Assembly (NCBI GenBank): GCA_965263075.1
Contig: CBDHGI010000006.1
Coordinates: forward strand, 2,790,101-2,854,100
Source: Chloroflexota bacterium
Lineage (GTDB): Bacteria > Chloroflexota > UBA11872
DNA: 64,000 nt
Direction: 5' to 3'
How positions within the stretch are numbered: the first letter of the stretch is position 1; each line of letters opens with the position of its first letter. A program made the position numbers and the translations under genes. This document shows positions 8,978 to 57,053 of this stretch, in pieces. A model generated the notes under the pieces. It saw only the letters and a program-made list of their open reading frames with translations, did not search any database and was not told the origin of the DNA.

Positions 8978-8989
8978 GGCACTCGAATC

Positions 8990-42531: not shown

Positions 42532-45117
42532 CTAGCCGGGGGCGCCGGCCGGGCTAGGGGTGGTCTCGACGATGGTCGGCTTGCCGTCCTGCAGGCGAAG
42601 TTCGAACTCGCGGCCCTCGGCTGCCTCCTGCATGACGTGGTCAGTGAGCGGCTGATCGACGTATTCGCCCACCAGTTGCGCGATCGGGCGAGCGCCGGCG
42701 TGCCGACCGAGGGTAACGGTGACGATGTAGTCGAGCGCGTCGGAGGTGATGTGGAGGCGGATGCCCAGATTCTCGGCGCGTAGGGTGGCGTCGGACAGCG
42801 CGCGTCTCGCGATCTCCCGGATTTCCTCCTCGGCCAGCGCGCGGAAGACGACCAGGCGGTCGATGCGGTTCAGGAATTCGCCGGGTAATTGCTTGCGGGC
42901 GTACTCGCGGATGCGGGCTTCGTAAGCAGTATGGCGCCGGGCCGACTCCGAGGTCGGTTCGAAACCGATGGAGGGTCCGGTGACCTGGTCGACGCCCAGG
43001 TTCGAGGTCAGCACGACGATGGTGTTGCGGAAGTCGACGTGGCGGCCGTTGGCGTCCGTGAGCAGGCCGTCTTCCATGATCTGCAGCAGAACATGCAACG
43101 TTCGGGGGTGGGCTTTCTCCACGTCGTCGAAGAGGACGACGGAGTAGGGGTTGCGGCGAACGGCCTCGGTGAGCCCGCCGGCTTCGTCGAACCCGACGTA
43201 GCCCGGCGGGGAGCCGATCAGCCGCGAGATGCTGTGGTACTCCGACATCTCCGACATGTCGACCCGCACCAGGTTTTCGTCGGTGCCGCTCACGAATTGG
43301 GCCAGGGCCTTGGCGGTTTCGGTTTTGCCGACGCCTGATTCGCCCAGGAAAAGGAACGATCCGATGGGGCGGCGTGAATCGCGCATGCCGGCGAGGGCGC
43401 GGCGTAGGGCGCGACCAAGTTCGGTTAGGACGTCGTCCTGGCCGACGACGCGTTTCCGCAGGTCGTCTTCCATGTGCAGGAAGCGGTCGGAGTCGTTCGC
43501 GGCCAGCGTGGGTAGCGGCACGCCGATCCAGGCGGACAGGACCTCGGCGATCTCGTGGGGTGTGATGACCGGACGATCTGTTCCGACTTCGGCCTGCCAG
43601 GCGTCGCGCTCGTTGCGAAGTTCGTCGCGGAGTTCATCGGCGACTTGCGCGCGCACCGGGCGTGGGGCTGCGGTGGGGTTCGGGGACGCAGCGGGGATCT
43701 GGGGTTCGGCCGTCACGCGTTCGGCGGGCGGTTGGGCGTCGGCCGTCGTCGGCTCGTCGGGCGCTTCGGGCGCGGCCTCGATTTGGGCGTCCAAGGATTT
43801 GATCCGGCGCTGAAGCTCGATGATGCGGGCCGGCGGCGTCTCGCGCCGCACCTTGGCCCGAGCGGAGGCTTCATCCATCAGGTCGATGGCTTTGTCGGGG
43901 AGCTGGCGGGAGGTCACGTAGCGGCGCGACAGATTCACAGTGGCGTCCACGGCGTCGTCGGTGACCTCGACCGCGTGATAGGACTCGTAGACAGGGCGCA
44001 GGGCTTTCAGGATTTCGATGGCGTCGTCGTCGCTCGGTTCATCCACGTCGATGGGTTGGAAGCGGCGGTTGAGGCTCTTGTCGTTGGCGATGTAGCGGCG
44101 GTATTCGCGCCAGGTGGTGGCGCCGATGACCTGCACTTCGCCGCGGGCCAGGTGGCCCTTGAGCAGGTTGGCGGCGTCCAACGACCCGGCCGCGCCGCCA
44201 GCGCCGATCACGGTGTGCAGTTCGTCGATGAAGAGAATGACGTCGCCGCTCTTGCGGACCTCGGCGATGAGTTGCTGGACGCGTTCCTCGAACTCGCCGC
44301 GGTACTTCGCGCCGGCGATCATGCCGGGGAGGCTGAGGGAGATTAGGCGCTTGTTCACGAGTTCGTCAGGAACGTCGCCCTTGACGATACGGTGCGCGAG
44401 GCCCTCGGCGATGGCCGTCTTGCCGACACCCGCGTCGCCTACCAGCACCGGGTTGTTCTTGGAGCGGCGCAGCAGGACTTCTATGGCGCGGTCCATCTCA
44501 ACCTGGCGGCCGATGACGGGGTCCAGGTCGCCGGTGCGGGCGGCGTTGGTGAAGTCGCTGCCGTATTCGGCCAGCATGCTGCGGGGCTTGCTGCGACGTC
44601 CGCGCCCTCGCCAACGTCCGCGGCGGCGGCGGCCGCGGCCCGGCGATCCGGGTTGGTAGGCGGCTTCGACGCGACGACGGAGCGGTCGGAACTCGATTCC
44701 GGCCGCGGCCAGCGCTCCCGAGGTCAGACGACCGGCGTTGGCCAGCGCGCCGAGCAACAGGTGCTCGGTGCCGATGAAGCGGACGCCCATGCGTTCGGCT
44801 TCCAGGGCGGCGGAGCGCAGCACGTTGCGGCCCTGCGCGGAGAGTGGGCGCCGGCCCTCGTCCCGCGCGTAGCCCGGGGGCAGGGTGTCGACGACGGTCT
44901 CGCGCAGCGGCTCCAACTCGATGCCGGCATCGCGCAGAACACGCGCAGCGGCGGTCTGCGGCGACTCCAGGATGGCCAGGAGGACGTGGCCGGGACCGAC
45001 GGCGTCGTGCCCGAGCCGAGCGGCTTGAAGCTCGGCGTGCTGGAGCACGCGACGGCCGCGGCCGGTGAGGCGGCGGATGTACTCGACTGGGGCGTATTCG
45101 TCGGGTTCGCGTTCCAC
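42532..45117 (-). CDS. clpC: AAA+ chaperone, Clp ATPase ClpC-like (two Clp_N repeats, two AAA modules)
   Basis: 861 aa. Walker A sites GDAGVGKT and GESGVGKT. Short middle domain (ClpC/ClpA-like rather than the long ClpB coiled coil). Confidence 0.88.
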   Translation of the reverse strand: MEREPDEYAPVEYIRRLTGRGRRVLQHAELQAARLGHDAVGPGHVLLAILESPQTAAARVLRDAGIELEPLRETVVDTLPPGYARDEGRRPLSAQGRNVLRSAALEAERMGVRFIGTEHLLLGALANAGRLTSGALAAAGIEFRPLRRRVEAAYQPGSPGRGRRRRGRWRGRGRRSKPRSMLAEYGSDFTNAARTGDLDPVIGRQVEMDRAIEVLLRRSKNNPVLVGDAGVGKTAIAEGLAHRIVKGDVPDELVNKRLISLSLPGMIAGAKYRGEFEERVQQLIAEVRKSGDVILFIDELHTVIGAGGAAGSLDAANLLKGHLARGEVQVIGATTWREYRRYIANDKSLNRRFQPIDVDEPSDDDAIEILKALRPVYESYHAVEVTDDAVDATVNLSRRYVTSRQLPDKAIDLMDEASARAKVRRETPPARIIELQRRIKSLDAQIEAAPEAPDEPTTADAQPPAERVTAEPQIPAASPNPTAAPRPVRAQVADELRDELRNERDAWQAEVGTDRPVITPHEIAEVLSAWIGVPLPTLAANDSDRFLHMEDDLRKRVVGQDDVLTELGRALRRALAGMRDSRRPIGSFLFLGESGVGKTETAKALAQFVSGTDENLVRVDMSEMSEYHSISRLIGSPPGYVGFDEAGGLTEAVRRNPYSVVLFDDVEKAHPRTLHVLLQIMEDGLLTDANGRHVDFRNTIVVLTSNLGVDQVTGPSIGFEPTSESARRHTAYEARIREYARKQLPGEFLNRIDRLVVFRALAEEEIREIARRALSDATLRAENLGIRLHITSDALDYIVTVTLGRHAGARPIAQLVGEYVDQPLTDHVMQEAAEGREFELRLQDGKPTIVETTPSPAGAPG

Positions 45118-45133: not shown

Positions 45134-45331
45134 TCAGAGGCCGATGGGAAGCTGGTCGACGAGGCTTTGCAAGCCCTCGCCGATGCTGTTGCCCAGAGAC
45201 GTGAACACCACGATCAGGACGATCACGAAGACGGCGGTGACGAGCAGATAGCTGAACACGCTCGACCCCTGGGGCAGATAGCGGCCGGAGGCCGGCCCGC
45301 GACCCGAATGGCGGGGCGCCCCGGTGGGGTT
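45134..45331 (-). CDS. Possible small membrane protein (single transmembrane segment)
   Basis: GTG-initiated ORF of about 66 codons (VTANLNPTG...SYLLVTAVFVIVLIVVFTSLGNSIGEGLQSLVDQLPIGL) immediately upstream of clpC. It has a hydrophobic core but no homology that I recognise. Confidence 0.2.
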   Translation of the reverse strand, partial: NPTGAPRHSGRGPASGRYLPQGSSVFSYLLVTAVFVIVLIVVFTSLGNSIGEGLQSLVDQLPIGL

Positions 45332-45463
45332 GAGATTGGCCGTCACTCCGGCTCCGAGGGCTTGTCGATCCCTGCAAGTGTAGACGGGCGGGGCGGTGGG
45401 GTGCTTGCTGGGGCTGGCGATGGGTATAGACCGGAGCGGCGCAATCGGGGGTCTCGCGCGCAA

Positions 45464-45487
45464 TAAGAGTTTTTTCCAAAAAACTCT
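45464..45487. repeat. AT-rich perfect palindrome AAGAGTTTTTT-CC-AAAAAACTCTT in a GC-rich background
   Basis: 11-bp arms and a 2-nt centre, seen directly. Lies about 350 bp upstream of the clpC start. Confidence 0.6.
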
Positions 45488-45734
45488 TGAGGCGCGGCGG
45501 GGCGTCTTTTGGCTGAAGCGGGGACGCGCCGGGCCACGCCCGGCGACGGACGGACCGGGGTGTGGCACGGGAGGGCAGCAGGGCGCGGCGGGGCGAGGTC
45601 TTGCCAGGGCGATGTGGCGAGACCTGGGCGGGATGCCGGGCGGCTCGCACCGGCACGGCAACCGGCGGTCGCGGGAGTCGGACGAAGCTGAGGGCGGGTG
45701 CCGGGCGGCGGGAATTGGGTGGGGGTAAAGGGGG

Positions 45735-45802
45735 AGCTATCTCTCGCCAGCCCGCCCCCTCTGGGGGCGGGCTGGCGAGAGATAGCTTGGGCCGAATTTT
45801 TT
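45735..45802 (+). repeat. Perfect 25-bp-stem hairpin (loop TCT) followed 9 nt downstream by T6
   Basis: Left arm AGCTATCTCTCGCCAGCCCGCCCCC (45735..45759). Right arm is its exact reverse complement (45763..45787). TTTTTT at 45797..45802. Terminator-like or a REP-type structural element. Confidence 0.55.
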
Positions 45803-46135
45803 GGCGGGTTGGCGAGGAAGGTTGGGGCTGTGAGGGGACGGCAGGACGGCGCGAGGGACGCTGGGTGCGCGGACGTGGCGAGGGGTTGGGGTGGGGGCGT
45901 CTCGAGCGGAAGAGACTGGTCTGAGACCGGCCGAGACGCAAGGTGAGGAACAGGCGGGGGCGCTCGGTTGCGAAGGTGGCGAGCAGTCGGAGGAGGCGGG
46001 TGAGCATGGAGGGTCCGGGGGAGGGCGTGAGATACGGCCTCTCTAGTGTATACTAAATGAATACGACAGGCAAGGCTGACGGGGGTAGTGGGGGCAATTC
46101 GGAGCGATAGTGGGCTCGGGATGGTGGGGAGGTCG

Positions 46136-46296
46136 GGGCGTGGTTCGACAGGCTCACCAGGGACGCTGGGTGCGCTGGGATTGTTGGGTGCCGCTGGGCC
46201 CCCTCCTTCGGCAGGCTCAGGGCAGGTTCTCCGGGGACGCCGGGATGTGGTTCGACTCGGCCCTCCGAAGACTGCGGGCCGGCTCACCATGAACGG
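46136..46296. repeat. REP-like modular GC-rich repeat, copy A
   Basis: Contains modules CCTTCGGCAGGCTCAGGGCAGG, TTCTCCGGGGACGCCGGGATG, TGGTTCGACTCGGCC and GGCTCACCATGAACGG. The same modules recur in copies B, C and D. Confidence 0.6.
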
Positions 46297-46346
46297 TAGG
46301 GGACGGGGCACGGAGGTCGGGAGGCGGGGGTTGGGCGCGGCTTGGG

Positions 46347-46494
46347 ATGTGTTCAGTCGGTCGGGGCAATGTGTTCAGTTTCGGGGCCAATGTGTCCAGT
46401 TTTCGGGCCAATGTGTCCAGTTCTTGGCCGAATGTGTTCAGTTTCAAGGGGGATGTGTTCACTTTGGCGGGCGATGTGTCCAGTTTTTGGCGGG
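46347..46494. repeat. Tandem array of seven 21-22-bp direct repeats (core ATGTGT(T/C)CAGTT), iteron-like
   Basis: Core motif starts at 46347, 46369, 46390, 46411, 46432, 46453 and 46474, i.e. a 21-bp period (two helical turns). Noncoding context. Confidence 0.75.
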
Positions 46495-46535
46495 GCGCTC
46501 TGGTTGGGGATGGGGCGCGGACGGAAGGCGAGATT

Positions 46536-46606
46536 CCTCCTTCGGCAAGCTCAGGACAGGCCTCGACGGGCTCAGGGCAGGTTCTCCGAGGACGCCGGGA
46601 TGACGG
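46536..46606. repeat. REP-like modular repeat, copy B
   Basis: CCTCCTTCGGCAAGCTCAGGACAGG...GGGCAGGTTCTCCGAGGACGCCGGGATGACGGG. Confidence 0.6.
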
Positions 46607-46729
46607 GGGAGGTGGCACGTGATTGGTGGGTGGTGGGGAGTGGCTGGTGACGGGGGCGGGGGTTGGGCTGGGTGGGATCGGAGGGCGAATTGAGGCTGGG
46701 GATGGCGGGGGCTGGCAATGACGTCGATG

Positions 46730-46760
46730 CCTGCAACGCAATCAGTAAATGCGTTGCAGG
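46730..46760. promoter_or_regulatory. 11-bp inverted repeat CCTGCAACGCA-N9-TGCGTTGCAGG upstream of hsdM; candidate operator or structural site
   Basis: Perfect arms with an AT-rich 9-nt spacer (ATCAGTAAA). A flanking imperfect direct repeat GATGC(C/A)(T/G)GCAACGC. About 165 bp upstream of the hsdM ATG. Confidence 0.4.
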
Positions 46761-46923
46761 CGATGCAGGCAACGCTGGCAAGGATGGCGAGCTCGGGACG
46801 CTTGCGTGAACGGTGCGGCTGGCAGGGGTTGGGCGCGGGGAGTGGGTCGGTTTGACCTGGGTGCGGTAGCTTGCGGGCCGGACATAGGTGGCGAGATACA
46901 CGCACAGCAGCGGTGAGGGGCGG

Positions 46924-49017
46924 ATGAACGCGGGGACGCATGGGGAGTTGGCGGGCTTTGTCTGGAGCATTTGCAACCTGTTGCGGGGGCCGTATAAGCG
47001 GAACGAGTACCGGAAGGTGATTCTTCCGCTGACGGTGTTGCGGCGATTCGACTGCGTGCTGGCGGAGACCAAGGACGCGGTCCTGGCGGAGAACGAGAAG
47101 TACGGCGGCGAGGCCAGTTCCCAACTGCTGCAGGCCGCTTCAGGATTCCGCTTCTACAACGTCTCGGAGTTGGACTTCGAGCGGCTGCTGGACGACCCGA
47201 ACCTGATTGCGTCGAACCTGACCGGTTACATCAACCGATTCTCGGCCAACGTGCGCGAGATCTTCGAGCGATTCGGTTTCGAGGCACAGATCGCGAAGAT
47301 GGACGAGAAAAACCTGCTGTTCCAGGTCGTGCAGGCGTTTGCGCGGGTCGACCTGTCGCCCGAGCGTGTCGACAACATGCAGATGGGCTACGTGTTCGAG
47401 GAATTGATCCGGATAGGGGCAGAGCAGGCGAACGAAGAGGCGGGGGAGCACTTCACGCCGCGTGAGGTCATTCGGCTGATGGTGAGCTTGCTGCTGTCGC
47501 ATGAACCCGACCTAGCCAAGTCACACGTGGTGAAAACGATTTACGACCCGGCGTGTGGTACGGGCGGGATGTTGTCGGTTTCCGAGGACTTTCTGAGGGA
47601 GCACAACAGCACCGCGAATCCGTTTCTCTTCGGGCAGGACCACAATGACGAGGTCTGGGCGGTCTGCGCCTCGGACATGCTGATCAAGGGCGAAAACGCC
47701 GAGAACATCGTCCTGGGCGACAGCTTCACGGCCGACGGGTATGCGCGCCGGTCCGACGGTCGGCGCTACACGTTCGACTACATGCTTGCGAATCCACCGT
47801 TTGGCGTTGAGTGGAAGCAACAGCGGCGTGAGATCGAACTGGAACGGGATTCACTGGGCTTCGACGGGCGATTCGGGGCGGGGCTGCCGCGGATCAATGA
47901 CGGGGCGTTGCTGTTCCTGCAGCACATGCTCTCGAAGATGCAGGCGCCTGAAGACGGCGGCAGCCGGATTGCGATCGTCTTCAACGGGTCTCCGTTGTTC
48001 ACGGGCGACGCGGGGAGCGGGGAGAGCGAAATCCGGCGGTGGATCATCGAGAACGACTGGCTGGAAGCCATCGTGGCGCTGCCGGATCAACTCTTCTACA
48101 ACACCGGGATCTCGACCTACATCTGGGTGCTAACCAACCGAAAGGAAGATCGCCGGCTGCGAAAGGTGCAACTGATCGACGGGCGGCAGTTTTTCGTGAA
48201 GATGCGCAGGAGCCTGGGCAACAAGCGCAACGAACTTTCCGCAGGCCAGATCGACGACCTGACGCGGATTCACGGCGATTTCCTGGACGGCGAGACGCGG
48301 GAACTGACGGATGAAGATCCAGTGACACATCAGCTGCGGACAAGGCCGCGCGTGGTGAGCAAGGTGTTTGCGAACGACGACTTTGGCTATCACAAGATCA
48401 CGGTCGAACGTCCGTTGCGGTTGAACTTCGCGGCGACGCCGGAGCGGATTGCGGGCATCGAGGATGAGCGGTCGTTTCAGAATCTGGCGCGGAGCCCGAA
48501 GCGAGCCGGTCCGGCGCACGATGAGGAAGTAGCTGAGGGTTGCAAGCGGCAAGAAGCGATTCGGATCCTGCTGACCTTTCTAGGAAAAGCAACCGGCGGC
48601 AAGGTGATACGAGACCGCGAAGAGCTGCGGATGGCTCTACGCGAATTGTGCAGCCATGCGGGCTTGCGGCTGTCGGCCGGGGAGCGAAAGGCAATCGAGT
48701 CGGCGCTGAGCGAGCGGGATCCGGACGCTGCCATCTGTCGCGGCAGCCGGGGCAAGATCGAGCCGGACACCGAGTTGCGCGACACAGAGACGGTGCCGCT
48801 GGGTGAGGACATCGACAACTACATGGCGCGGGAGGTGCTGCCGCACGTTCCGGACGCCTGGGTAGACGAGAGCAAGACGAAGGTCGGCTACGAGATACCG
48901 CTAAACCGGCACTTCTACGTCTACGAGCCGCCGCGCGCGCTCGACGAGATCAGGTGCGACTTGCAGCAGCTGGAACGGGGGATCGCGGGCCTGATCTCCG
49001 ATGTCGTGAGAAGCTGA
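46924..49017 (+). CDS. hsdM: Type I restriction-modification system, DNA methyltransferase subunit M (with about 200-aa C-terminal extension)
   Basis: Start MNAGTHGELAGFVWSICNLLRG (ATG 46924, preceded by GGTGAGGGG). HsdM N-terminal domain, AdoMet motif (DPACGTGGML) and catalytic NPPF (LANPPFG). Extra C-terminal region of about 200 aa. Confidence 0.9.
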   Translation: MNAGTHGELAGFVWSICNLLRGPYKRNEYRKVILPLTVLRRFDCVLAETKDAVLAENEKYGGEASSQLLQAASGFRFYNVSELDFERLLDDPNLIASNLTGYINRFSANVREIFERFGFEAQIAKMDEKNLLFQVVQAFARVDLSPERVDNMQMGYVFEELIRIGAEQANEEAGEHFTPREVIRLMVSLLLSHEPDLAKSHVVKTIYDPACGTGGMLSVSEDFLREHNSTANPFLFGQDHNDEVWAVCASDMLIKGENAENIVLGDSFTADGYARRSDGRRYTFDYMLANPPFGVEWKQQRREIELERDSLGFDGRFGAGLPRINDGALLFLQHMLSKMQAPEDGGSRIAIVFNGSPLFTGDAGSGESEIRRWIIENDWLEAIVALPDQLFYNTGISTYIWVLTNRKEDRRLRKVQLIDGRQFFVKMRRSLGNKRNELSAGQIDDLTRIHGDFLDGETRELTDEDPVTHQLRTRPRVVSKVFANDDFGYHKITVERPLRLNFAATPERIAGIEDERSFQNLARSPKRAGPAHDEEVAEGCKRQEAIRILLTFLGKATGGKVIRDREELRMALRELCSHAGLRLSAGERKAIESALSERDPDAAICRGSRGKIEPDTELRDTETVPLGEDIDNYMAREVLPHVPDAWVDESKTKVGYEIPLNRHFYVYEPPRALDEIRCDLQQLERGIAGLISDVVRS

Positions 49018-49066
49018 CGGCGTGACCAGGACGTACCGATCCGACGCGAATCGGGCCGCCTAATCC

Positions 49067-49267
49067 ATGCCGAAGGTGCGGGACGCGATCCGGATGGTGG
49101 AGCGCGACGGCTGGCACCATGTGACCACGCGAGGGAGCCACCGGCAGTTCCGCCACCCAGTCAAGCCGGGCAAGGTCACGATTCCGGGCAAACCGGGCGA
49201 CGACGTGGGGCCGAAGCTCTGGGCCAGTATCATGAAGCAGGCTGGCCTCGAGAGAGAACGTCGATGA
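49067..49267 (+). CDS. hicA: HicA-family toxin (mRNA interferase), type II TA
   Basis: 66 aa. ...VERDGWHHVTTRGSHRQFRHPVKPGKVTIPGKPGDDV..., the typical HicA/YcfA fold signature. Confidence 0.85.
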   Translation: MPKVRDAIRMVERDGWHHVTTRGSHRQFRHPVKPGKVTIPGKPGDDVGPKLWASIMKQAGLERERR

Positions 49268-49608
49268 AGCTCACGTACGCCGTCGTCTTCGAGCAGACGC
49301 CCAACAACTACGCGGCCTATGTGCCGGACGTCCCGGGCTGCGTCAGCACCGGCAAGAGCTGGGACGAGATGCTGGCGATGATCCGCGAGGCGCTGGCGTT
49401 CCACATCGAGACGATCCTGGAGGATGGGGAGCCGCTCCCCGAGCCGAGGATGTCTATCGACGAGGCCATCGCGAACCACAGCGAACCCATCGCCGAGGAC
49501 GTGCTCAACTCCTACCTGGAGTTCGGCGAGCCCGGCCCCACGATCTCGACCCGGTTTGAGATGGTTGAGATTGAGGTTCCCGCCCCGCAGGCTGTTCAGG
49601 TGGGCTGA
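49264..49608 (+). CDS. hicB: HicB-family antitoxin (UPF0150), type II TA
   Basis: 114 aa; overlaps the hicA stop (ATGA). MKLTYAVVFEQTPNNYAAYVPDVPGCVSTGKSWDEMLAMIREAL, the HicB N-terminal RNase-H-like fold signature. Confidence 0.8.
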   Translation: MKLTYAVVFEQTPNNYAAYVPDVPGCVSTGKSWDEMLAMIREALAFHIETILEDGEPLPEPRMSIDEAIANHSEPIAEDVLNSYLEFGEPGPTISTRFEMVEIEVPAPQAVQVG

Positions 49609-49702
49609 CGGACACTCGACGGGGAGCGTTGAGGTGGCCACGGGATCCGCCGACGCGCATCGATGTGACGCGGTCAAGACCGTGAGCGAGTCACGCACGA
49701 CC

Positions 49703-51073
49703 ATGCGCGCCTACCCTCACTACCGCGACTTCGGCGTCGAGTGGCTCGGTGAGGTGCCGGAACATTGGACCTCGGAACAGCTTGGACGCCTCGGCTCGTT
49801 CTCAAAGGGCAGCGGCGGCACGAAAGAAGACGAGGTCGAAGACGGAGTTCCCTGCGTTCGCTACGGGGACCTCTACACAGTGCACCAGTTCCACATCAAG
49901 GAGACCCGGGCAAACATCTCCGAGGACAGCGCAGCCAATTACACGGCAATCCGATACGGGGACCTCTTGTTTGCCGGGTCGGGTGAGACCCTTGAGGAAA
50001 TAGGCAAGTCAGCTTCCAATCTGGTTGGCGGCCCGGCGTATTGCGGCGGGGACGTGATCCTCTTTCGTCCGTCAATCGAGACTGAGGCCACTTTTCTTGG
50101 TTACGCCGCAGATTGCGCTCCTGCGGCTTACCAAAAGGCATGCATGGGGCGAGGCGTCACCGTCATGCACATCTACTCCAGCGAGCTCAAGTACATGGTC
50201 GTGCCGCTCCCACCCCTCGACGAGCAGCGCGCAATTGCCGCGTTTCTGGACCGGGAGACGGAGCGGATCGATGCGTTGGTGGAGAAGAAGCGGTTGTTGA
50301 TCGAGCGGTTGGAGGAGTACCGGACGGCGCTGATCACGCGCACGGTGACGCGGGGGCTGCCGCCCGAGGCGGCGCGCGCCGCCGGGCTGGACCCGTCGCC
50401 GCGGTTGAAGGCTTCGGGGGCGGAGTGGCTAGGGGTCGTTCCAGAGCATTGGGAGGTAAAGGCGCTGAAGTGGGAGACGCCTGTTCAACGTGGGGCTTCG
50501 CCGCGGCCAATTGACGACGAAGCCTATTTCGATAACGACGGCTCACACGCCTGGGTACGAATCGCCGATGTGACCGCAGCTGGTATGTATCTGAATCGCA
50601 CGACACAGCGGCTCTCTGAACTAGGAGTCTCCCTAAGCGTGCCGCTAGAGCCAGGGGAGCTTGTTTTGAGCATTGCTGGATCAGTGGGTAAGCCCTGTAT
50701 CACGAAGATCGATTGCTGCATTCACGACGGGTTCGTCTATTTCCCACAATGGACGGGGGACGTTCGGTACCTGTTCTATGTGTTTGCCTCAGGTGAGCCC
50801 TACAAGGGACTGGGGAAACTAGGCACCCAGCTGAACCTGAACACTGACACAGTCGGTTCAATCTCAGTAGCAATACCTCCAGTAGACGAGCAGGCAGCGA
50901 TTGCGGACTACTTGACCACTGAGAACGCCGAGATTGAGAGCTCGTTGGAGTCGGTCCGCGAAGCCGTCGAACGGCTACAGGAATTTCGGGCAGCCCTCAT
51001 CACCGCCGCCGTAACCGGCAAGATCGACGTGCGCGAAGCCGCGCAAGCGCCGGTCGCTGCAATGTTGGCGTAA
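49703..51073 (+). CDS. hsdS: Type I restriction-modification system specificity subunit S
   Basis: Start MRAYPHYRDFGVEWLGEVPEHW. Two target-recognition domains separated by conserved coiled-coil regions (LPPLDEQRAIAAFLDRETERID... and IPPVDEQAAIADYLTTENAEIE...). Confidence 0.9.
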   Translation: MRAYPHYRDFGVEWLGEVPEHWTSEQLGRLGSFSKGSGGTKEDEVEDGVPCVRYGDLYTVHQFHIKETRANISEDSAANYTAIRYGDLLFAGSGETLEEIGKSASNLVGGPAYCGGDVILFRPSIETEATFLGYAADCAPAAYQKACMGRGVTVMHIYSSELKYMVVPLPPLDEQRAIAAFLDRETERIDALVEKKRLLIERLEEYRTALITRTVTRGLPPEAARAAGLDPSPRLKASGAEWLGVVPEHWEVKALKWETPVQRGASPRPIDDEAYFDNDGSHAWVRIADVTAAGMYLNRTTQRLSELGVSLSVPLEPGELVLSIAGSVGKPCITKIDCCIHDGFVYFPQWTGDVRYLFYVFASGEPYKGLGKLGTQLNLNTDTVGSISVAIPPVDEQAAIADYLTTENAEIESSLESVREAVERLQEFRAALITAAVTGKIDVREAAQAPVAAMLA

Positions 51074-54000
51074 ATGACCAGCCAAACCAACGAGGCGGCC
51101 TTCGAGTCGACCGTTGAGGACATGCTGCTCGAGGGCGGCTGGAACTCAGGCAACCGGTTGGAATGGGACGCGGTGCAAGCTCTCTTTCCGGCGCGTGTCG
51201 TCGCGTTCTTGCAGGCGACGCAGCCCGAACAGTGGGCAGCGATGGCTGGATTGCACGGCGAGAAGCTGAAAGCGCGGATCGTGGACGCGCTGGCCAAGGA
51301 ACTGGTCCTGAAGGGCATGCTGGACGTGCTGCGCCACGGGTTCAAGTTCTACGGCAAGACGTTCCGGCTGGCCTATTTCAAACCGGCGCACGGGCTGAAC
51401 CCGGAGGCGCTGGCGCAGTTCGAGCGCAACGACCTGACGGTCACGCGGCAGGTTGCCTACAACCCGAACACCAACGAAACCTTGGACCTGGTGTTTGCGC
51501 TCAACGGCGTGCCGGTGGCCACGTGTGAGTTGAAGAACCCGATGACGGGTCAGTCCTGGAAGAGCGCGGTTCGGCAGTACAAGCAGGACCGTGACCCTAC
51601 CGCTCCAATCTTCAAATTCCAGAAGCGGGCGCTGGTGCACTTTGCCGCCGATCCCGACGAAGTTCACATGACGACGCGACTGGCCGGGGAGAAAACCCGA
51701 TTCCTGCCCTTCAACCGGGGGAGCCGGCCCGGCGAGATTCAATGCGGGGCGGGCAACCCGCCGCATGCTGCGGGGTACCGCACGGGTTACTTCTGGCAGG
51801 GGGTGCTGGAACGCGAGCGGTTCCTGGACATTCTCGGCTCCTACATGTTCGTGGAACGCCGCGACGAGAAGGTCGAGGACGCGAAGGGCGCACGAACGGT
51901 CAAGCGGGAGACGGTGATCTTTCCGCGCTATCACCAACTGGATTCAGTCGACCGCCTGGTGACGACCGCGGCAGCGGATGGTCCGGGACGCAACTACCTG
52001 ATTCAGCACTCAGCTGGGAGCGGCAAGACGAACAGCATCTCGTGGCTGTCGCACCGGCTGGCGAGCCTGCACGACGCCGACGAGCAGAAGATCTACCAGT
52101 GCGTGGTGGTGATCACAGACCGGCGCGTGCTTGACCGACAATTGCAAGACGCGATCTACCAGATCGAGCACGCGCAGGGCGTGGTGAAGGCGATCGATCA
52201 GGATTCCAAGCAGCTGGCGACCGCGCTGGTGGACGGGACGATGATCGTGATTACGACGCTGCAGAAGTTTCCGTTCGTGATGAAGGGTCTGCTGCGGATC
52301 GCGGGGGCCGACGAGCCGGACGCCGCGAGCGCGGCCGAGCGGGCGCAGGCCGAGTCCTGGAGCAAGGCAATTGCCGGGCGTCGATACGCAGTGATCGTGG
52401 ACGAGGCGCACTCCAGCCAGACGGGCGAGAGCGCGCGGGAAATGAAGGCGGTACTCGGGTCCAAGGCGCAGGCAGCCGAGGAGGAAGGGGACGAGGACTG
52501 GGAAGACGGGATCAATGCGGTGATCGAATCGCGCGGACCGCAGCCGAATCTCTCGTTCTTTGCGTTCACGGCGACACCCAAGGGGAAGACGTTAGAGGTG
52601 TTCGGGCGGCCGGGTCCCAGCGGCAAACCTGAGCCGTTCCACGTCTACAGCATGCGTCAGGCGATCGAGGAAGAGTTCATCCTGGACGTGCTGGGGCGGT
52701 ACACCGACTACGACACGTACTACCGGCTGGTGAAGCAGGCGGCGGAGGACCCGGAGTTTCCCAAGCGGCGGGCGGCCTCGGAGCTGGCGAAGTTCATGCA
52801 GCTGCACGAGTACAACCTGGCGCAGAAAGCCGAAGTGATCGTGGAGCACTTCCGCAACAACGTGCGGCACCAGATGGGCGGCAAGGCGAAGGCGATGGTG
52901 GTGACCTCGGGCCGGCTGCACGCGGTGCGCTACATGCAGGCCTTTCAGCGGTACATCGCCGAGAAGGAGTACGAGGACGTGCGGCCGCTGGTGGCCTTCA
53001 GCGGCACGGTGCGGGATCCGGACACGGGCGAGGAGTTCACCGAGCCGAGCATGAACTGGGACGGGGTGACGGGGAAGCCGATCAGCGAATCGGCGTTGCC
53101 GGGCCGGTTCGCCTCGCCGGACTACCAGATTCTGCTGGTGGCGGAGAAGTACCAGACCGGGTTCGACCAACCGTTGTTGCAGGCGATGTACGTGGACAAG
53201 CGGCTGGACGGGGTGCAGGCGGTACAGACGCTCTCACGGCTGAACCGTATGGCGCCGGGGAAGGAACCGCCGTTCGTGCTGGACTTCGTGAACGACCCGG
53301 AGGACATCCGCGACGCGTTCAAGCCGTACTTCGACCAGACGGAACTGCTGGACGAATCGGACCCGCACAAGCTGGAAGTGCTGAAGCACGAACTGGACCA
53401 GATGCAGGTTTACCACTGGGAAGAGGTGGAGGCGTTCGCGAGGGTGTTCTACCTGCCAGTGGCGAAGCAGCGGAAGCAGGATCACGCGCGGCTGGAAAAG
53501 GCGCTGCAGCCAGCGCGGGGCCGGTTCGGGGCGCTGGACGAGGAGGGCCAGACCGAGTTCCGCGACCGGCTAGCGGCGTTCGCGAACCTGTACGCGTTCC
53601 TGAGCCAGATCATTCCCTATGGCGACAGCGAGCATGAGCGGCTGTATTCGTTCGGGCGGGCGCTGCTGCCGTACCTGCAGGAGGACAGTGAGCGGGAACA
53701 GATTGACCTGGGGGACGACGTGGAGCTGGCGTATTACCGGCTGCAACAGGTGACTGAGGGGGCGATCAGCCTGGGCGAGGGTGAAGGCGCCTACGTGGTG
53801 AGCCCGACGGAGACCGGCACGGGCGACCCGGAGGAAGACAAGGCGCCGCTGTCGGAGATTATCGAGCGGCTGAACGAGCGGTTTGGGACGAACTTCACGG
53901 ACGCGGACCGGTTTTTCTTTGAGCAGGTGAAGGCGCAGGCGGTTCAGGACGAAACGGTGCGCGAGACGGCGCGGGCGAATCCGCTGGATAAGTTCAGCCT

Positions 54001-54172
54001 GGGGGTTCGGGATCAGATTTCTGATCTGATGATTGCGCGGATGAGTGAGAACGATTCGCTGGTGAAGCGGTACCTGGAGGAGACGGAGTTTCAAAATCTC
54101 GCGTATGAGGTGTTGGCGAAGGAGATATTTGCGGCGGTGCGGGGTGGTGAGGCGGGGGTGGCCGGCGGATAG
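51074..54172 (+). CDS. hsdR: Type I restriction-modification system endonuclease subunit R
   Basis: 1032 aa. ATG directly follows the hsdS stop. N-terminal nuclease domain, SF2 helicase motifs (QHSAGSGKT; DEAH-like VIVDEAHSSQ) and a C-terminal helical domain. Confidence 0.95.
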   Translation: MTSQTNEAAFESTVEDMLLEGGWNSGNRLEWDAVQALFPARVVAFLQATQPEQWAAMAGLHGEKLKARIVDALAKELVLKGMLDVLRHGFKFYGKTFRLAYFKPAHGLNPEALAQFERNDLTVTRQVAYNPNTNETLDLVFALNGVPVATCELKNPMTGQSWKSAVRQYKQDRDPTAPIFKFQKRALVHFAADPDEVHMTTRLAGEKTRFLPFNRGSRPGEIQCGAGNPPHAAGYRTGYFWQGVLERERFLDILGSYMFVERRDEKVEDAKGARTVKRETVIFPRYHQLDSVDRLVTTAAADGPGRNYLIQHSAGSGKTNSISWLSHRLASLHDADEQKIYQCVVVITDRRVLDRQLQDAIYQIEHAQGVVKAIDQDSKQLATALVDGTMIVITTLQKFPFVMKGLLRIAGADEPDAASAAERAQAESWSKAIAGRRYAVIVDEAHSSQTGESAREMKAVLGSKAQAAEEEGDEDWEDGINAVIESRGPQPNLSFFAFTATPKGKTLEVFGRPGPSGKPEPFHVYSMRQAIEEEFILDVLGRYTDYDTYYRLVKQAAEDPEFPKRRAASELAKFMQLHEYNLAQKAEVIVEHFRNNVRHQMGGKAKAMVVTSGRLHAVRYMQAFQRYIAEKEYEDVRPLVAFSGTVRDPDTGEEFTEPSMNWDGVTGKPISESALPGRFASPDYQILLVAEKYQTGFDQPLLQAMYVDKRLDGVQAVQTLSRLNRMAPGKEPPFVLDFVNDPEDIRDAFKPYFDQTELLDESDPHKLEVLKHELDQMQVYHWEEVEAFARVFYLPVAKQRKQDHARLEKALQPARGRFGALDEEGQTEFRDRLAAFANLYAFLSQIIPYGDSEHERLYSFGRALLPYLQEDSEREQIDLGDDVELAYYRLQQVTEGAISLGEGEGAYVVSPTETGTGDPEEDKAPLSEIIERLNERFGTNFTDADRFFFEQVKAQAVQDETVRETARANPLDKFSLGVRDQISDLMIARMSENDSLVKRYLEETEFQNLAYEVLAKEIFAAVRGGEAGVAGG

Positions 54173-54237
54173 GGCGCTGGCATTTCTGGGTTGACGGGGT
54201 GGCACGTCGCGCCGGGATCGTTTGGGTGCTGCTGGGT

Positions 54238-54465
54238 CCCCCTTCGGCCGGCCCAGGGCGGGTTCTCCGAGGGACTCCGGGGCGGCTCACCACGAACGGG
54301 GGGTGGGCTGGGGATGTGGTTCGACTCGGGCCGCCGAGGGACTCTGGCCCGGCCCTTCGGCAGGCTCAGGACAGGCTCACCACGAACGGATTGGGGAAGA
54401 CGAGCGGGTCGGAGACGCCGCCTCTACGGAAGTTGGGACCGCGGACGCCGGGATGACGGTAGTGC
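54238..54465. repeat. REP-like modular repeat, copy C (two tandem units)
   Basis: CCTTCGGCCGGCCCAGGGCGGGTTCTCCGAGGGACTCCGGGGCGGCTCACCACGAACGG...GGATGTGGTTCGACTCGGGCC...CCTTCGGCAGGCTCAGGACAGGCTCACCACGAACGG...GACGCCGGGATGACGG. Confidence 0.6.
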
Positions 54466-56200: not shown

Positions 56201-56249
56201 TGGTGGTTTGCAGTCTCCTCCCAAGCCATCCTATCCGTAGCCAGTTCTC

Positions 56250-56328
56250 CAGCCGCCGGGATGCTGGGGAGTGTTTCGTGGTTCGATCTGACCTTCTACG
56301 AGCTAAGGACGGGCTCACCACGAACGAG
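56250..56328. repeat. REP-like modular repeat, copy D
   Basis: GCCGCCGGGATGCTGGGG...TGGTTCGATCTGACCTTCTACGAGCTAAGGACGGGCTCACCACGAACG, the same modules as copies A-C. Confidence 0.5.
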
Positions 56329-56375
56329 GGTTGCTGGCCACGAGCGGAGGTGGCGCGCTGCGAGTGACGAATTGC

Positions 56376-56789
56376 TCACTGTGGCGGGTTGGCGAAGGGG
56401 TTGAGGGTGGGGATGCCGAAGTGCTGGAAGTCGCGGATGTTGCGGGTGACGACGGTTAGGCGGTGGACGGTGGCGACGGCGGCGATGAGGGCGTCCTGCA
56501 TGAGGGTGTCTGATTGGCGGTGCATGAGCTTGGCCCAGATCCGAAACGCGGGGGCGTCCACATCGAGCACTTCATAGGTCGCGAGTACGCGGTCGAGCCA
56601 CGATTCCAGGTGTTCCGCCTTGGCGGCGTCCTGCTGGCGGGTGACTTCGATACCGGCCTGGATCTCGCCGATCGTGACGGCTGACAGATAGAGGTGATCG
56701 GCCGGCACACGCTGAATCCACTCCAGTACGGCCGGGCTTGGCCGCGGGCGACGCAGTTCCGAGACGACGTTTGTATCGAGGAGGTACAC
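56376..56789 (-). CDS. vapC: PIN-domain toxin VapC (type II TA)
   Basis: 137 aa. MYLLDTNVVSELRRPRP... with the conserved acidic residues of a PIN domain (D5, E..., D..., ...TRN). Confidence 0.88.
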   Translation of the reverse strand: MYLLDTNVVSELRRPRPSPAVLEWIQRVPADHLYLSAVTIGEIQAGIEVTRQQDAAKAEHLESWLDRVLATYEVLDVDAPAFRIWAKLMHRQSDTLMQDALIAAVATVHRLTVVTRNIRDFQHFGIPTLNPFANPPQ

Positions 56790-56792
56790 GCG

Positions 56793-57053
56793 CTAGTTGA
56801 ATTGCGGGGCGGCACGGCGACGGAGGGGTCGACGCGGGGGTGTGAGAGCTTCGGTGCGCGGCTCGGGCGCGAGCAGCAACTCCTTGAGGTTGGGGCGCGT
56901 CATGCGCTCCAGCCGGCGCCACTGGTCAATCGGGACGAGCACCGCTGTCTCGACGCCGCGCTTTGTGACGATCTGCGGCCCTTCGGCGAGGCTGGTCTCA
57001 AGCAGTTCGCTGAAACGCGCCTTGGCCTCCTGCACTTGCCAGATGTTGCCCAT
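56793..57053 (-). CDS. Phd/YefM-family antitoxin (partner of VapC)
   Basis: 86 aa. MGNIWQVQEAKARFSELLETSLAEGPQIVTKRGVETAVLVPIDQWRRL, the Phd/YefM N-terminal fold. The stop lies 3 nt before the vapC start. Confidence 0.8.
   Translation of the reverse strand: MGNIWQVQEAKARFSELLETSLAEGPQIVTKRGVETAVLVPIDQWRRLERMTRPNLKELLLAPEPRTEALTPPRRPLRRRAAPQFN

Follow-up and report, generated by a model that had tools for sequence, protein, structure and literature searches.

An array of seven 21-bp direct repeats in a Chloroflexota genome: candidate sites for an IS481-transposase-type HTH domain and one copy of a dispersed family

Background

Plasmid iterons (P1, F, R6K, RK2, pPS10) and partition arrays (R1 parC, pSM19035 omega) are built of tandem repeats of about 20 bp, in which a conserved core is followed by a variable spacer and the phasing on one face of the helix suits cooperative binding; some of them adjoin promoters. 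Both at iterons and at the pac/cosB sites of phages, the DNA is bent or wrapped by side-by-side binding, and the R sites of lambda cosB are the recognition repeats of the phage terminase. In phage SPP1 the direct repeats of pac cover promoters as well as the first part of the terminase gene, and the DNA is proposed to be wrapped round an HTH ring (PMC4737164). Insertion sequences of the IS481 family carry subterminal transposase-binding repeats; the IS481-like left end considered below has two such sites, about 23 bp apart by the terminal TGTGTAGAC. The BIMEs/REP of E. coli and the pneumococcal BOX elements (A-Bn-C) are multi-copy, intergenic and modular. Finally, homologous promoters ahead of unrelated genes are a known phenomenon, described as 'mobile promoters' (Matus-Garcia et al. 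2012, PMC3488235).

The array analysed here lies in a stretch of 64 kb from a Chloroflexota bacterium (the window) and has traits in common with each of these systems. It belongs to a previously undescribed dispersed family of arrays in the chromosomes of mostly sponge-associated Chloroflexota. On balance we favour the reading that its seven units are candidate sites for an HTH of the IS481 transposase type and that it is one copy of a dispersed, IS481-derived family.

Results

A preliminary description of the window had noted seven direct repeats of about 21 bp in noncoding DNA. Exact alignment, TRF (period 21, 6.6 copies, score 113) and shuffled sequences all bear this out. The units occupy positions 46347-46494 of the plus strand and start at 46347, 46369, 46390, 46411, 46432, 46453 and 46474, which amounts to one start-to-start spacing of 22 bp (the first) followed by five of 21 bp. 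A core that persists upon exact alignment had been set beforehand as a test, and such a core is present: positions 1 to 13 of the unit read ATGTGTYCA, S and TTT, and the roughly 8 bp behind them are variable. The exact string ATGTGTYCAGTT occurs in five of the seven units and with a single mismatch in the other two, position 7 being T, T, C, C, T, T, C from the first unit to the last. By chance 0.14 matches to the core would be expected per window, and none of 100 shuffles gave seven. Elsewhere in the 64 kb no further copy was found on either strand, nor does the window hold an inverted one.

The array is set in about 1.5 kb of G-rich DNA, with a small ORF and clpB (minus strand) on one side and hsdM (plus strand) on the other, the start of hsdM lying 430 bp past the array end. 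An ATG ORF (46347-46622) covers the array, 21 bp being equal to seven codons. On the near-identical contig L115 the gene caller placed no plus-strand gene over the array, in agreement with its noncoding character; the sole call there is a minus-strand ORF of 315 aa (8420-9367) without a Pfam match, which we judge to be spurious. Among relatives, the array was not found within a conserved protein-coding gene. A look-up with hsdM returned a single near-identical contig (99.5% identical, with an identical array), which is uninformative on copy number. A CRISPR array was considered and rejected, as the unit is only 21 bp long with some 8 variable bases, where CRISPR repeats measure 23-50 bp and alternate with unique spacers of similar length, and as cas genes are absent.

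The core does recur beyond the window, in related MAGs. A genome scan detected homologous arrays at no fewer than 52 loci (a lower bound) in 17 Chloroflexota MAGs, and the family as collected holds 74 arrays with 438 units. Matches outside the Chloroflexota were set aside, being mostly homogeneous tandem repeats (10, 22 or 23 bp) or unrelated 21-bp units. Of 364 spacings 289 measure 21 bp, and 49 of the 74 arrays open with a spacing of 22 bp, as does the window array; irregular spacings are 22, 23, 32 and 42 bp. Arrays usually have five or six units and at most 12, with fresh unit duplications evident in some (L020, L091). Each chromosome or MAG contains from several to at least ten scan-detected loci, and between MAGs the arrays are retained at orthologous loci where the flanking genes are 80-90% identical at the DNA level. 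Most neighbours are housekeeping genes. R-M or nuclease genes account for several of the right-hand neighbours of dispersed arrays, most others again being housekeeping genes on either strand, and the only regulator gene linked to arrays is an HTH_37 gene at three loci. Literature searches on the core motif strings gave unrelated primers only, and those on repeats of sponge Chloroflexi or on terminase together with IS481 gave nothing relevant.

The arrays are polar. Their orientation is biased both with respect to the neighbouring gene (35 of 40) and to the GC skew of the flanks (40 of 48). Where two arrays are paired within a locus they stand in direct orientation throughout, without an inverted partner or a terminal inverted repeat. 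An inverted-end transposon was rejected for this reason, every array being in direct orientation.

Conservation is concentrated on the core. Across 12 pairs of homologous arrays the identity is 95.9% for the core, 89.3% for the T-tract, 83.5% for the spacers and 83.7% for the flanks. Relative to the spacer, conservation of the core is about four times better, so the core is under selection. Also, the order of the units is kept among homologous arrays, the irregular first unit included. RNA folding of the array is no better than that of shuffled sequences on either strand (z-scores of 0.33 and 0.24). The period of 21 bp, the conserved core and the missing folding signal are in keeping with the earlier suggestion of sites for cooperative binding on one face of the helix. 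In contrast to BIMEs, BOX elements and mobile promoters, the tandem units are conserved like binding sites (96% for the core, 84% for the spacer), the arrays are tied to an identifiable DNA-binding domain, and they are polar towards gene and flank GC skew.

This domain is found at eight loci (L066, L102, L105, L189, L190/L191, L272, L286 and L287), where an array of four to seven units lies 35-46 nt upstream of a gene that we call HTH-TerL. The protein (483-484 aa) carries an IS481-type HTH at its N-terminus, followed by a terminase-large-subunit-like body with matches to PHROG phrog_2 (E 3e-22) and to the TerL ATPase domain of PDB 4znj (E 4.6e-10) and with the Walker A motif GGERAGKS. Paralogs that lack the HTH (L188, L192, L273-L283) are preceded by a separate small ORF instead of an array. 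T-type arrays pair with the HTH motif GIAPATGYKW (five loci) and C-type arrays with GISHTTGY(K/R)W (three loci), a pairing that holds over two different types of TerL body. Part of this match could result from physical linkage, since the array lies only about 40 bp from the HTH codons.

TerL-adjacent arrays make up three of the approximately 50 genome-scan loci and some housekeeping neighbours are at least as frequent, so the dispersed arrays could serve another protein. No HTH-TerL or IS481-like gene is present within the 64-kb window, and a metagenome scan with the HTH-TerL alignment yielded HTH-less or distant terminases only, none of them with arrays. In every HTH-TerL locus for which the contig extends to the far side (seven in all), an R-M or methylase gene stands across the array, though of differing type, and no defence-system model of PADLOC fits the TerL-like protein or its neighbours.

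The eight loci share with SPP1/SF6 pac and the lambda cosB R sites the arrangement of repeated HTH sites, candidate ones in the present case, just upstream of a terminase or terminase-like gene and overlapping its promoter region, and bent or wrapped DNA would be expected in both cases. There are also differences: the HTH is of transposase type and fused to TerL, whereas in the phages it sits on the TerS ring; homologous arrays are found dispersed along the chromosome; and for the window copy no TerL homolog is present anywhere in the 64 kb. Around the terminase-like genes, searches with Pfam and PHROGs of the genes beside HTH-TerL revealed no clear capsid gene. Portal-like traces comprise a single weak PHROG match (E 4e-4) at L189:317-2002, a portal-like reading of the 3' end of a gene in L192, and a 569-aa gene beside the HTH-less paralogs that is portal-like by position only and has no NCBIfam match. 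A packaging role for the terminase-like protein is therefore speculative.

The ancestry of the HTH and of the array lies in IS481. The fusion HTH matches NCBIfam transpos_IS481 (positions 3-47) and is 76% identical over its first ~40 residues to the N-termini of IS481-family transposase fragments. The left end of an IS481-like element has the sequence TGTGTAGAC..TGAACACCC..TGAACACAT, followed by 46 nt and an ATG. It aligns colinearly with the fusion genes over the final two units of the array, the 46-nt leader and the HTH codons, save for one gap at its extreme terminus. TGAACAC occurs twice in this end, and TGAACAC(AT) is the reverse complement of ATGTGTTCA. The arrays and the subterminal repeats of IS481 have the core motif, its orientation and the 46-nt distance to the start codon in common, next to homologous HTH codons. 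Compared with the two sites of an IS481 end, the arrays hold five to seven units (up to 12) with a period of 21 bp; they have no IS terminus, inverted partner end or transposase gene, and they occupy fixed orthologous intergenic positions. The window array likewise adjoins neither a transposase gene nor an IS terminus, and it shows none of the terminal inverted repeats around a DDE transposase gene, nor the target-site duplication, of a complete IS481 copy.

Homology to other loci delimits a mosaic, dispersed, noncoding element (about 45473-46822) in which the array is held. Over 1042 bp it is 82% identical to L100 (OZ253587.1), whose flanks have no DNA-level match to clpB or hsdM of the window. 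At its left edge is an A/T-stem hairpin module, CGCGCAATAAGAGTTTTTT / AAAAAACTCTTGAGGCGCG (45457-45496), which is also seen in L026, L049, L100 and L188. A perfect palindrome with 25-bp arms (45735-45787), preceded by GGGGGTAAAGGGGG and followed by TTGGGCCGAATTTTTT, is dispersed along with the array; among its 25 copies both arms have changed in 10 of 23 pairs and one arm alone in none. Rfam, at gathering and permissive thresholds, gave only generic hairpin matches to this palindrome, and a tRNA scan gave no hits. The small dispersed repeat CCTCCTTCGGCAGGCTCAGGGCAGGTTCTCCGGGGACGCCGGGATG (46202-46247, plus strand) has a second copy at 46536-46602 and related copies at 54209-54381, and in other loci it usually precedes C-type arrays. 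A 35-aa ORF module (46702-46809, plus strand) in the interval between array and hsdM recurs in six other loci.

On the promoter side the first gene is a hydrophobic ORF of 70 aa (45134-45346, minus strand), followed by clpB (42532-45117, minus strand); on the other side hsdM (46924-49017, plus strand) opens the type I R-M operon hsdM-hicA-hicB-hsdS-hsdR. The modules recombine between loci and the ends of homology differ from locus to locus. IS110 elements are inserted within or beside the element in related loci. Neither terminal inverted repeats nor target-site duplications of the element were found among the loci compared, and RAYT or Y1 transposases are missing among the neighbours of related arrays. 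Being multi-copy, intergenic and composed of modules (a palindrome, a promoter, tandem units in variable number and smaller repeats), the element matches the general description of MITEs, REP/BIMEs and BOX.

A sigma-70-type promoter is predicted on the minus strand at 46046-46074 (-35 TTGCCT at 46074-46069, 17-nt spacer, -10 TACACT at 46051-46046). It reads away from the array, which lies about 270-420 bp upstream, towards the palindrome, the small ORF and clpB. Of 53 loci, 40 carry the block CTTGCC-N17-TACAAT/TACACT, without exception in this orientation and at ~50-382 bp from the array, and the promoter-side gene is co-oriented with it in 35 of 40. In L002 and L070 this gene starts about 45 nt past the palindrome, too close for a further promoter to fit in between. 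In function the promoter-side genes are unrelated (acs, sulfite reductase, secDF, pepF, nitroreductase and clpB), and the same predicted promoter sequence thus precedes unrelated genes both within and between genomes, as described for mobile promoters. The order is reversed in the TerL loci: there the array lies between promoter and gene, whereas in most other loci it is upstream of the promoter. A promoter look-alike on the plus strand is also seen in the element; a conserved rightward promoter was not found in the interval between array and hsdM. Downstream of the promoter a possible leader ORF (GGAG-N6-ATG) is conserved over some 12 codons, in some loci only, and we make no claim for it.

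Discussion

If the units are indeed sites for the transposase-type HTH, their 21-bp length would set each core on one helix face, two turns apart, and the phased T-tracts would give the GC-rich DNA an intrinsic bend. Side by side, five to seven HTH domains might then bind and bend or wrap the DNA. The array module itself goes back to the subterminal transposase repeats at the left end of an IS481-like element, and in this clade the same HTH is also fused to a terminase-large-subunit-like ATPase-nuclease, the fusion gene always being preceded by an array. At the window locus the binder may be HTH-TerL or a transposase-derived relative. Two outcomes can be envisaged: binding to the array may modulate the adjacent promoter, or it may recruit the terminase-like enzyme and so mark the start of DNA cutting or translocation.

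The second outcome can be extended to a bolder reading, which we regard as quite unlikely. Here a domesticated HTH-TerL motor would use the arrays as its places of landing or initiation on the chromosome, acting jointly with the portal-like module that lies beside the HTH-less paralogs. The cell, a GTA-like agent or an agent that mobilises islands would begin cutting or translocation at dozens of defined sites, co-oriented with the G-rich (presumably leading) strand, and two specificities would exist, the APA HTH recognising T-type cores and the SHT HTH recognising C-type cores.

Two alternatives take the element rather than the terminase-like protein as their starting point. The array could be the operator or activating region of the outward promoter, served by a lineage-specific regulator that is perhaps a domesticated transposase HTH and has no relation to the terminase-like protein. 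The recurrence of the promoter in one orientation at ~50-382 bp from the array (40 of 53 loci), the co-oriented genes (35 of 40), the lack of space for a second promoter in L002 and L070 and the precedent of homologous promoters before unrelated genes (PMC3488235) argue for it. We nevertheless consider it rather unlikely, given that the distance to the promoter is variable, that the order is reversed in the TerL loci, that the driven genes have no common function and that no regulator gene is linked except HTH_37 at three loci. The array might also be a mosaic repeat, selfish or neutral, comparable to BIMEs, BOX elements or MITEs, left over from IS481-type ends and without a present function in the cell; this would agree with the modular, multi-copy, intergenic and recombining element, with the IS481-like ancestry, with the IS110 insertions and with the recent duplications in L020 and L091. 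Such a repeat would not be expected to keep its core four times better than spacers and flanks, to preserve the order of its units including the irregular first one, or to be retained at orthologous sites across MAGs. Moreover, no locus has a terminal inverted repeat or an inverted array partner, and the orientation is biased towards gene (35 of 40) and flank GC skew (40 of 48); this explanation is unlikely as well.

The remaining explanations concern the immediate surroundings of the window array. Control of the downstream operon hsdM-hicAB-hsdS-hsdR had been put forward at the outset, and the part of that idea which stands is that R-M genes recur on this side: the array ends 430 bp before hsdM, an R-M or methylase gene is found across the array in seven of seven assessable HTH-TerL loci, and R-M or nuclease genes are several of the right-hand neighbours elsewhere. 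The only conserved promoter points the other way, however, and none leads rightward between array and hsdM. In addition, right-hand neighbours are mostly unrelated housekeeping genes on either strand, the R-M types differ, and the 82%-identical element copy L100 has no DNA-level match to hsdM, all of which makes this control very unlikely. The main early proposal, that the array is a vestigial origin or par centromere of the plasmid or phage element that delivered the island, has to be abandoned in all probability. In its favour are the iteron-like format (a row of direct repeats, within the 17-22 bp usual for iterons, each made of a conserved core and a variable spacer) and the adjoining defence and toxin-antitoxin island. 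The setting of the window array, however, is chromosomal. Pfam scans of the ORFs flanking the array (clpB, the 70-aa ORF, hsdM/S/R) gave no Rep family, and those around the array and among the neighbours of related loci gave no parA/parB, parM/parR or tubZ/tubR, in line with the original observation that no rep, par or regulator gene is adjacent. The DnaA box TTATCCACA is absent from the 64 kb even with one mismatch allowed, the GC content never falls below 52% per 100 bp (the minimum being in the array itself, without an AT-rich stretch that could serve as an unwinding element), and the GC skew does not change sign. Searches by blastn against 72,556 plasmid and 50,697 phage records returned no relevant match to the array. 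Instead of one origin per plasmid or phage replicon, a chromosome or MAG has several to at least ten copies of this module, which recurs at no fewer than 52 mostly housekeeping-flanked loci with conserved orthologous sites.

Least credible of all is a role as RNA (structured, or as a protein sponge) or as a heptad-repeat coding sequence. The period of seven codons, the ATG ORF over the array and the sole variable core position, a transition, might hint at it, but no reading frame would survive the spacings of 22, 23, 32 and 42 bp that occur in the family. Besides, no plus-strand gene is called, Rfam gives no match to the array, its folding resembles that of shuffled sequences, and in most loci the promoter transcribes away from it.

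Conclusions

An iteron-like array next to a defence island need not mark a replicon, which is of direct relevance for annotation. If our favoured reading of transposase-type HTH sites is right, the end-recognition module of a transposon (HTH plus sites) would have been amplified into multi-site arrays at dozens of fixed positions, and the transposon HTH would have been grafted onto a phage packaging ATPase-nuclease. Were the landing-site reading to hold, host DNA would be packaged or processed in a sequence-programmed way by means of a module captured from an IS481 transposon. Either way a clade of uncultured symbionts offers a concrete pair of protein and DNA that can be put to the test and that comes in two natural variants of specificity. 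In this clade promoter-bearing mosaic elements may link many housekeeping genes (clpB, acs, sulfite reductase, secDF, pepF and others) to a single DNA-binding protein.

Array in the window and its neighbourhood

The motif ATGTGTYCAGTT occurs seven times on the plus strand at window positions 46347-46494, five copies being exact and two carrying one mismatch. Units start at 46347, 46369, 46390, 46411, 46432, 46453 and 46474, giving a start-to-start spacing of 22 bp once and of 21 bp five times. TRF reports a period of 21, 6.6 copies and a score of 113. By chance 0.14 matches are expected in the window, none of 100 shuffles gave seven, and the rest of the 64-kb window holds no further copy of the motif on either strand. 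The seven direct repeats of the preliminary description are thus borne out. Along the array core position 7, the base by which we distinguish T-type and C-type arrays, reads T,T,C,C,T,T,C, i.e. the array is of mixed type.

The window is chromosomal, with a GC content of ~66% and a GC skew that is positive throughout and never changes sign. To the left of the array lie clpB (42532-45117, minus strand) and a 70-aa hydrophobic ORF (45134-45346, minus strand), the latter separated from hsdM by a non-coding stretch of ~1.5 kb that is strongly G-rich (skew up to 0.7). To the right hsdM starts at 46924 on the plus strand, followed in plus-strand order by hicA/hicB (49067-49608, inserted between hsdM and hsdS of the type I restriction-modification (R-M) operon), hsdS and hsdR. 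Past hsdR, the minus strand carries a Schlafen/AlbA_2 plus HATPase_c_4 gene (54377-56224) and a PIN/PhdYeFM pair (about 56376-57053); moaC and gyrA come after these. The stretch from 46924 to 57053 forms a defence and toxin-antitoxin island. Neither tRNAs nor Rfam families were found around the array.

A family of arrays with conserved cores

A scan of one genome per species, requiring three cores 12-15 bp apart, yielded at least 114 loci, of which at least 52 are found in 17 Chloroflexota MAGs. Many of the array-bearing MAGs are sponge bins (RHO, COS, SB0662, CO36386), arrays are also present in complete chromosomes (OZ240251, OZ242271, OZ253587, OY764080), and multiple array loci in one genome are common. 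Among the matches listed, the Chloroflexota loci comprise 74 arrays with 438 units; an array usually has 5-6 units (range 3-12). Of 364 spacings, 289 measure 21 bp, and 49 of these 74 arrays begin, like that of the window, with a spacing of 22 bp. Positions that were not used for selecting units are conserved as well, namely S at 10, T at 11-13 (84-93%) and G at 17 (83%). Core position 7 is usually uniform (T or C) within one array, and a frequent layout is a T array followed on the same strand by a C array 150-250 bp further on, some of these pairs being fused. Within a locus, arrays never occupy both strands.

Scan matches outside Chloroflexota are mostly unrelated homogeneous tandem repeats. 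A few 21-bp arrays with a TGTGTYCA core do occur there, in Solirubrobacterales (L106:4688-4760, with variable spacers like those of the Chloroflexota family), Agrococcus (L074) and Thermoanaerobaculia (L018; L-numbers denote loci retrieved by the scan or by protein searches). They may serve related HTH proteins as binding arrays in an analogous manner.

Twelve pairs of homologous arrays, aligned via their flanks, show an identity of 95.9% at core positions 1-9, 89.3% in the T-tract, 83.5% in the spacers and 83.7% in the flanks, which amounts to a core substitution rate that is about four-fold lower. Under concerted evolution entire units, and not the cores alone, would become homogenised. Arrays are also kept at orthologous intergenic sites between MAGs with a DNA-level identity of 80-90% in the flanking genes (for example at sulfite reductase/GNAT, nitroreductase/HTH_37, pepF, acs and secDF). 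Judged by these alignments, the cores are under selection, with the conservation expected for protein-binding sites. Both the difference between cores and spacers and the orthologous retention support the structural view taken in the preliminary description.

A mosaic intergenic element

The array is part of an element (45473-46822) that shares 82% identity over 1042 bp with locus L100 (OZ253587.1), where neither the clpB nor the hsdM of the window has a match at the DNA level. Single modules are common to many loci, and their order and orientation are fixed: an A/T-stem hairpin, a palindrome, a promoter block and the array(s). The hairpin (CGCGCAATAAGAGTTTTTTCCAAAAAACTCTTGAGGCGCG, 45457-45496) is also seen in L026, L049, L100 and L188:5098-5140. 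It recurs in several genomes, in L188 ~70 nt past a gene end, and looks like a dispersed terminator-like module.

The palindrome (45735-45787) has perfect 25-bp arms, with GGGGGTGAAGGGGG before it and TTGGGCCGGATTTTT after it, and is co-dispersed with the arrays. In the 25 copies of alignment A6 (one from the window, 24 from Chloroflexota loci), both partners have changed at 10 of 23 stem pairs; no pair shows a change in one partner alone, and no G-U pair has arisen. As G-U intermediates are lacking, the palindrome appears to be constrained at the DNA level or on both strands, and this points to a terminator active in both directions, or to a palindrome bound by protein, more than to an ordinary RNA stem.

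After 210-450 variable bases the palindrome is followed by the promoter block (46046-46076, minus strand), which has the sequence of a sigma-70-type promoter (CTTGCC-N17-TACAAT/TACACT). In the window the promoter reads TTGCCT-17 nt-TACACT (46046-46074, minus strand) and its spacer is unusually conserved (TCGTAATCA). The block is present in 40 of 53 loci, 50-380 bp from the array(s) and always oriented away from them, and most copies, not all, have GGAG-N6-ATG downstream. A crude ORF caller places the promoter-side gene on the same strand as the promoter in 35 of 40 loci; in L002 and L070 that gene begins ~45 nt past the palindrome. These genes are unrelated housekeeping genes. The pattern fits the published notion of 'mobile promoters' (PMC3488235), and the promoter can be regarded as a candidate family of this kind.

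Small repeats ('TTCGRCAGGCTCAGGRCAGG') and a 35-aa ORF module occupy the remainder of the element. The G-rich repeats TTCGRCAGGCTCAGGRCAGG...GGGGACGCCGGGATG are located at 46140-46300, 46536-46608 and 54209-54381, flanking the R-M operon on both sides; they are very common in related MAGs, usually just before C-type arrays. The ORF (MAGAGNDVDACNAISKCVAGDAGNAGKDGELGTLA, 46702-46809, plus strand) has GAGG 8 nt upstream and homologues in L049, L108, L113, L087, L100 and L053, with differences mostly at third codon positions; its product may be a genuine small protein or a precursor peptide, encoded in multiple copies.

The elements are polar relative to the G-rich strand, since in 40 of 48 loci the flanks are G-rich on the array top strand, and in 35 of 40 the promoter-side gene lies on the strand opposite to the array top strand. 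If, as we infer, the G-rich strand is the leading strand of replication, the elements are preferentially located upstream of lagging-strand genes. Terminal inverted repeats and target duplications were not found in the related loci. Related IS110-family (DEDD) transposase genes are seen inside or beside the element (L113:2230-3231, L053:1451-2023, L096:1900-2898), in L113 between palindrome and array. IS110 elements are known to target repeated sequences, and insertions at the mosaic element fit this behaviour.

A candidate binding protein and its IS481 ancestry

In three scan loci (L066, L102 and L105) the array lies 35-46 nt upstream of the start codon of a ~484-aa protein, and the same arrangement is found in five loci from protein searches (L189, L190/L191, L272, L286 and L287). 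This protein, HTH-TerL, is encoded by chromosomal genes and combines an N-terminal HTH (Pfam HTH_23, HTH_28 and HTH_Tnp_1, all weak) with a terminase-large-subunit-like body (PHROG phrog_2, E 3e-22; TerL ATPase domain of PDB 4znj, E 4.6e-10). The body contains the Walker A motif GGERAGKS and weakly matches the Terminase_3C nuclease. Seven HTH-TerL loci have the far side of the array on the contig, and each of them carries there, divergent from the HTH-TerL gene, an R-M or methylase gene, the type of which varies; in the window hsdM takes the corresponding position. A convergent protein of about 760 aa follows HTH-TerL in L066, L190 and L191. The HTH-TerL loci show no clear capsid genes and no PADLOC model match.

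Paralogs of 433-436 aa that lack the HTH (L188, L192, L273-L283) have no arrays, so the array accompanies the HTH. In L273-L283 the module begins with a 569-aa gene that only its position marks as portal-like, and continues with a small ORF (motif 'ALDGERWAVELV'), TerL and a convergent ~759-aa gene; L192 has the 3' end of a portal-like gene, a small ORF and TerL, and L188 a small ORF upstream of TerL and a convergent type I R-M operon. The L273-L283 modules lie inside bacterial contigs with no capsid genes visible and may be a GTA-like or satellite-type remnant widespread in these Chloroflexota.

T-type arrays (5 loci) pair with the HTH motif RRFGIAPATGYKW and C-type arrays (3 loci) with RRFGISHTTGY(K/R)W. 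As both HTH variants occur on each of two distinguishable TerL bodies (alignment A3), the match holds in four combinations, with a contribution from linkage, the array being only ~40 bp from the HTH codons. A switch in specificity would look like this: all units of an array share one base, and the recognition helix begins with a discrete change.

Over 38 residues the HTH shares 76% identity with the N-termini of the IS481-family transposase fragments P0123-P0125 (Pfam LZ_Tnp_IS481; NCBIfam transpos_IS481, E 3e-19). The transpos_IS481 model is also matched, at positions 3-47, by the fusion protein. An IS481-like left end in L284 and L285 reads TGTGTAGACC-GGAGACATCA-TGAACACCC-ATTC-GGAGACATGG-TGAACACAT, then 46 nt, then ATG, and holds the T-type core twice as reverse complement. 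One gap at the IS terminus aside, it runs colinear with the final two units of the array, the 46-nt leader and the opening codons of HTH-TerL. Given this colinearity, the arrays next to TerL are subterminal transposase sites of IS481 type that have been amplified. Dispersed and TerL-adjacent arrays have the core, T-tract, period and irregular first unit (ATGTGTTCACGCCGTCCGAGCCG against ATGTGTTCAGTCGGTCGGGGCA) in common, from which we conclude that the dispersed arrays, including the one in the window, are the same module.

Possible roles of the array

Comparative analysis establishes, at the level of sequence, a selected row of cores, phased at 21 bp on one face of the helix, homologous to transposase sites and co-occurring and co-varying with an IS481-type HTH. 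With modest confidence, a little better than even, we take the window array to be a binding array for this HTH family and a member of a dispersed chromosomal family. Five to seven HTH domains would sit side by side on it, and phased T-tracts in GC-rich DNA would favour bending, so that the oligomer may bend or wrap the DNA. Bending or wrapping by a bound oligomer is likewise proposed for iterons. Wrapping of pac DNA has been proposed around rings of small-terminase HTHs (PMC4737164). Two outcomes, which do not exclude each other, can be imagined: the neighbouring outward promoter, in the window serving the small ORF and clpB, could be modulated, or the TerL-like ATPase-nuclease could be recruited to defined chromosomal sites, analogous to pac or cosB and possibly tied to the recurring R-M and defence genes. 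A packaging or processing version of this kind seems rather unlikely, and the case for a functional consequence is circumstantial.

The array might instead be dedicated to a regulator of the element's promoter, which is improbable, though the likeliest of the other explanations. Slightly less probable is a functionless BIME/MITE-like relic, a reading weakened by core selection, the conserved order of units and orthologous retention. Control of the type I R-M operon, one of the two roles considered in the preliminary description, is very unlikely. The other role, a vestigial replicon or partition site, is less plausible again: the repeat format agrees with it, but every other defining feature tested is missing, there being no rep or par gene near the array, no DnaA box or AT-rich stretch in the window and no match to the array in plasmid and phage collections. 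That idea is accordingly not upheld. An RNA or coding repeat hardly merits consideration; folding of the array as RNA is no better than that of shuffled sequence on both strands (z = 0.33 and 0.24).

The array descends from IS481 ends, and on our preferred reading, an HTH binding array, its mode of working is like that of iterons and pac/cosB sites. It falls outside the iteron, par and IS-end classes, as it comes without Rep, Par, an AT-rich DUE, or terminal inverted repeats plus transposase. As a dispersed modular intergenic repeat it is similar to BIMEs, BOX elements and mobile promoters, but differs from them in its binding-site conservation pattern and identifiable cognate domain. Neither the core motif nor the arrays nor HTH-TerL fusions were found described in the searchable literature. 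The family is undescribed, and the array itself is a solid find with a testable protein partner.
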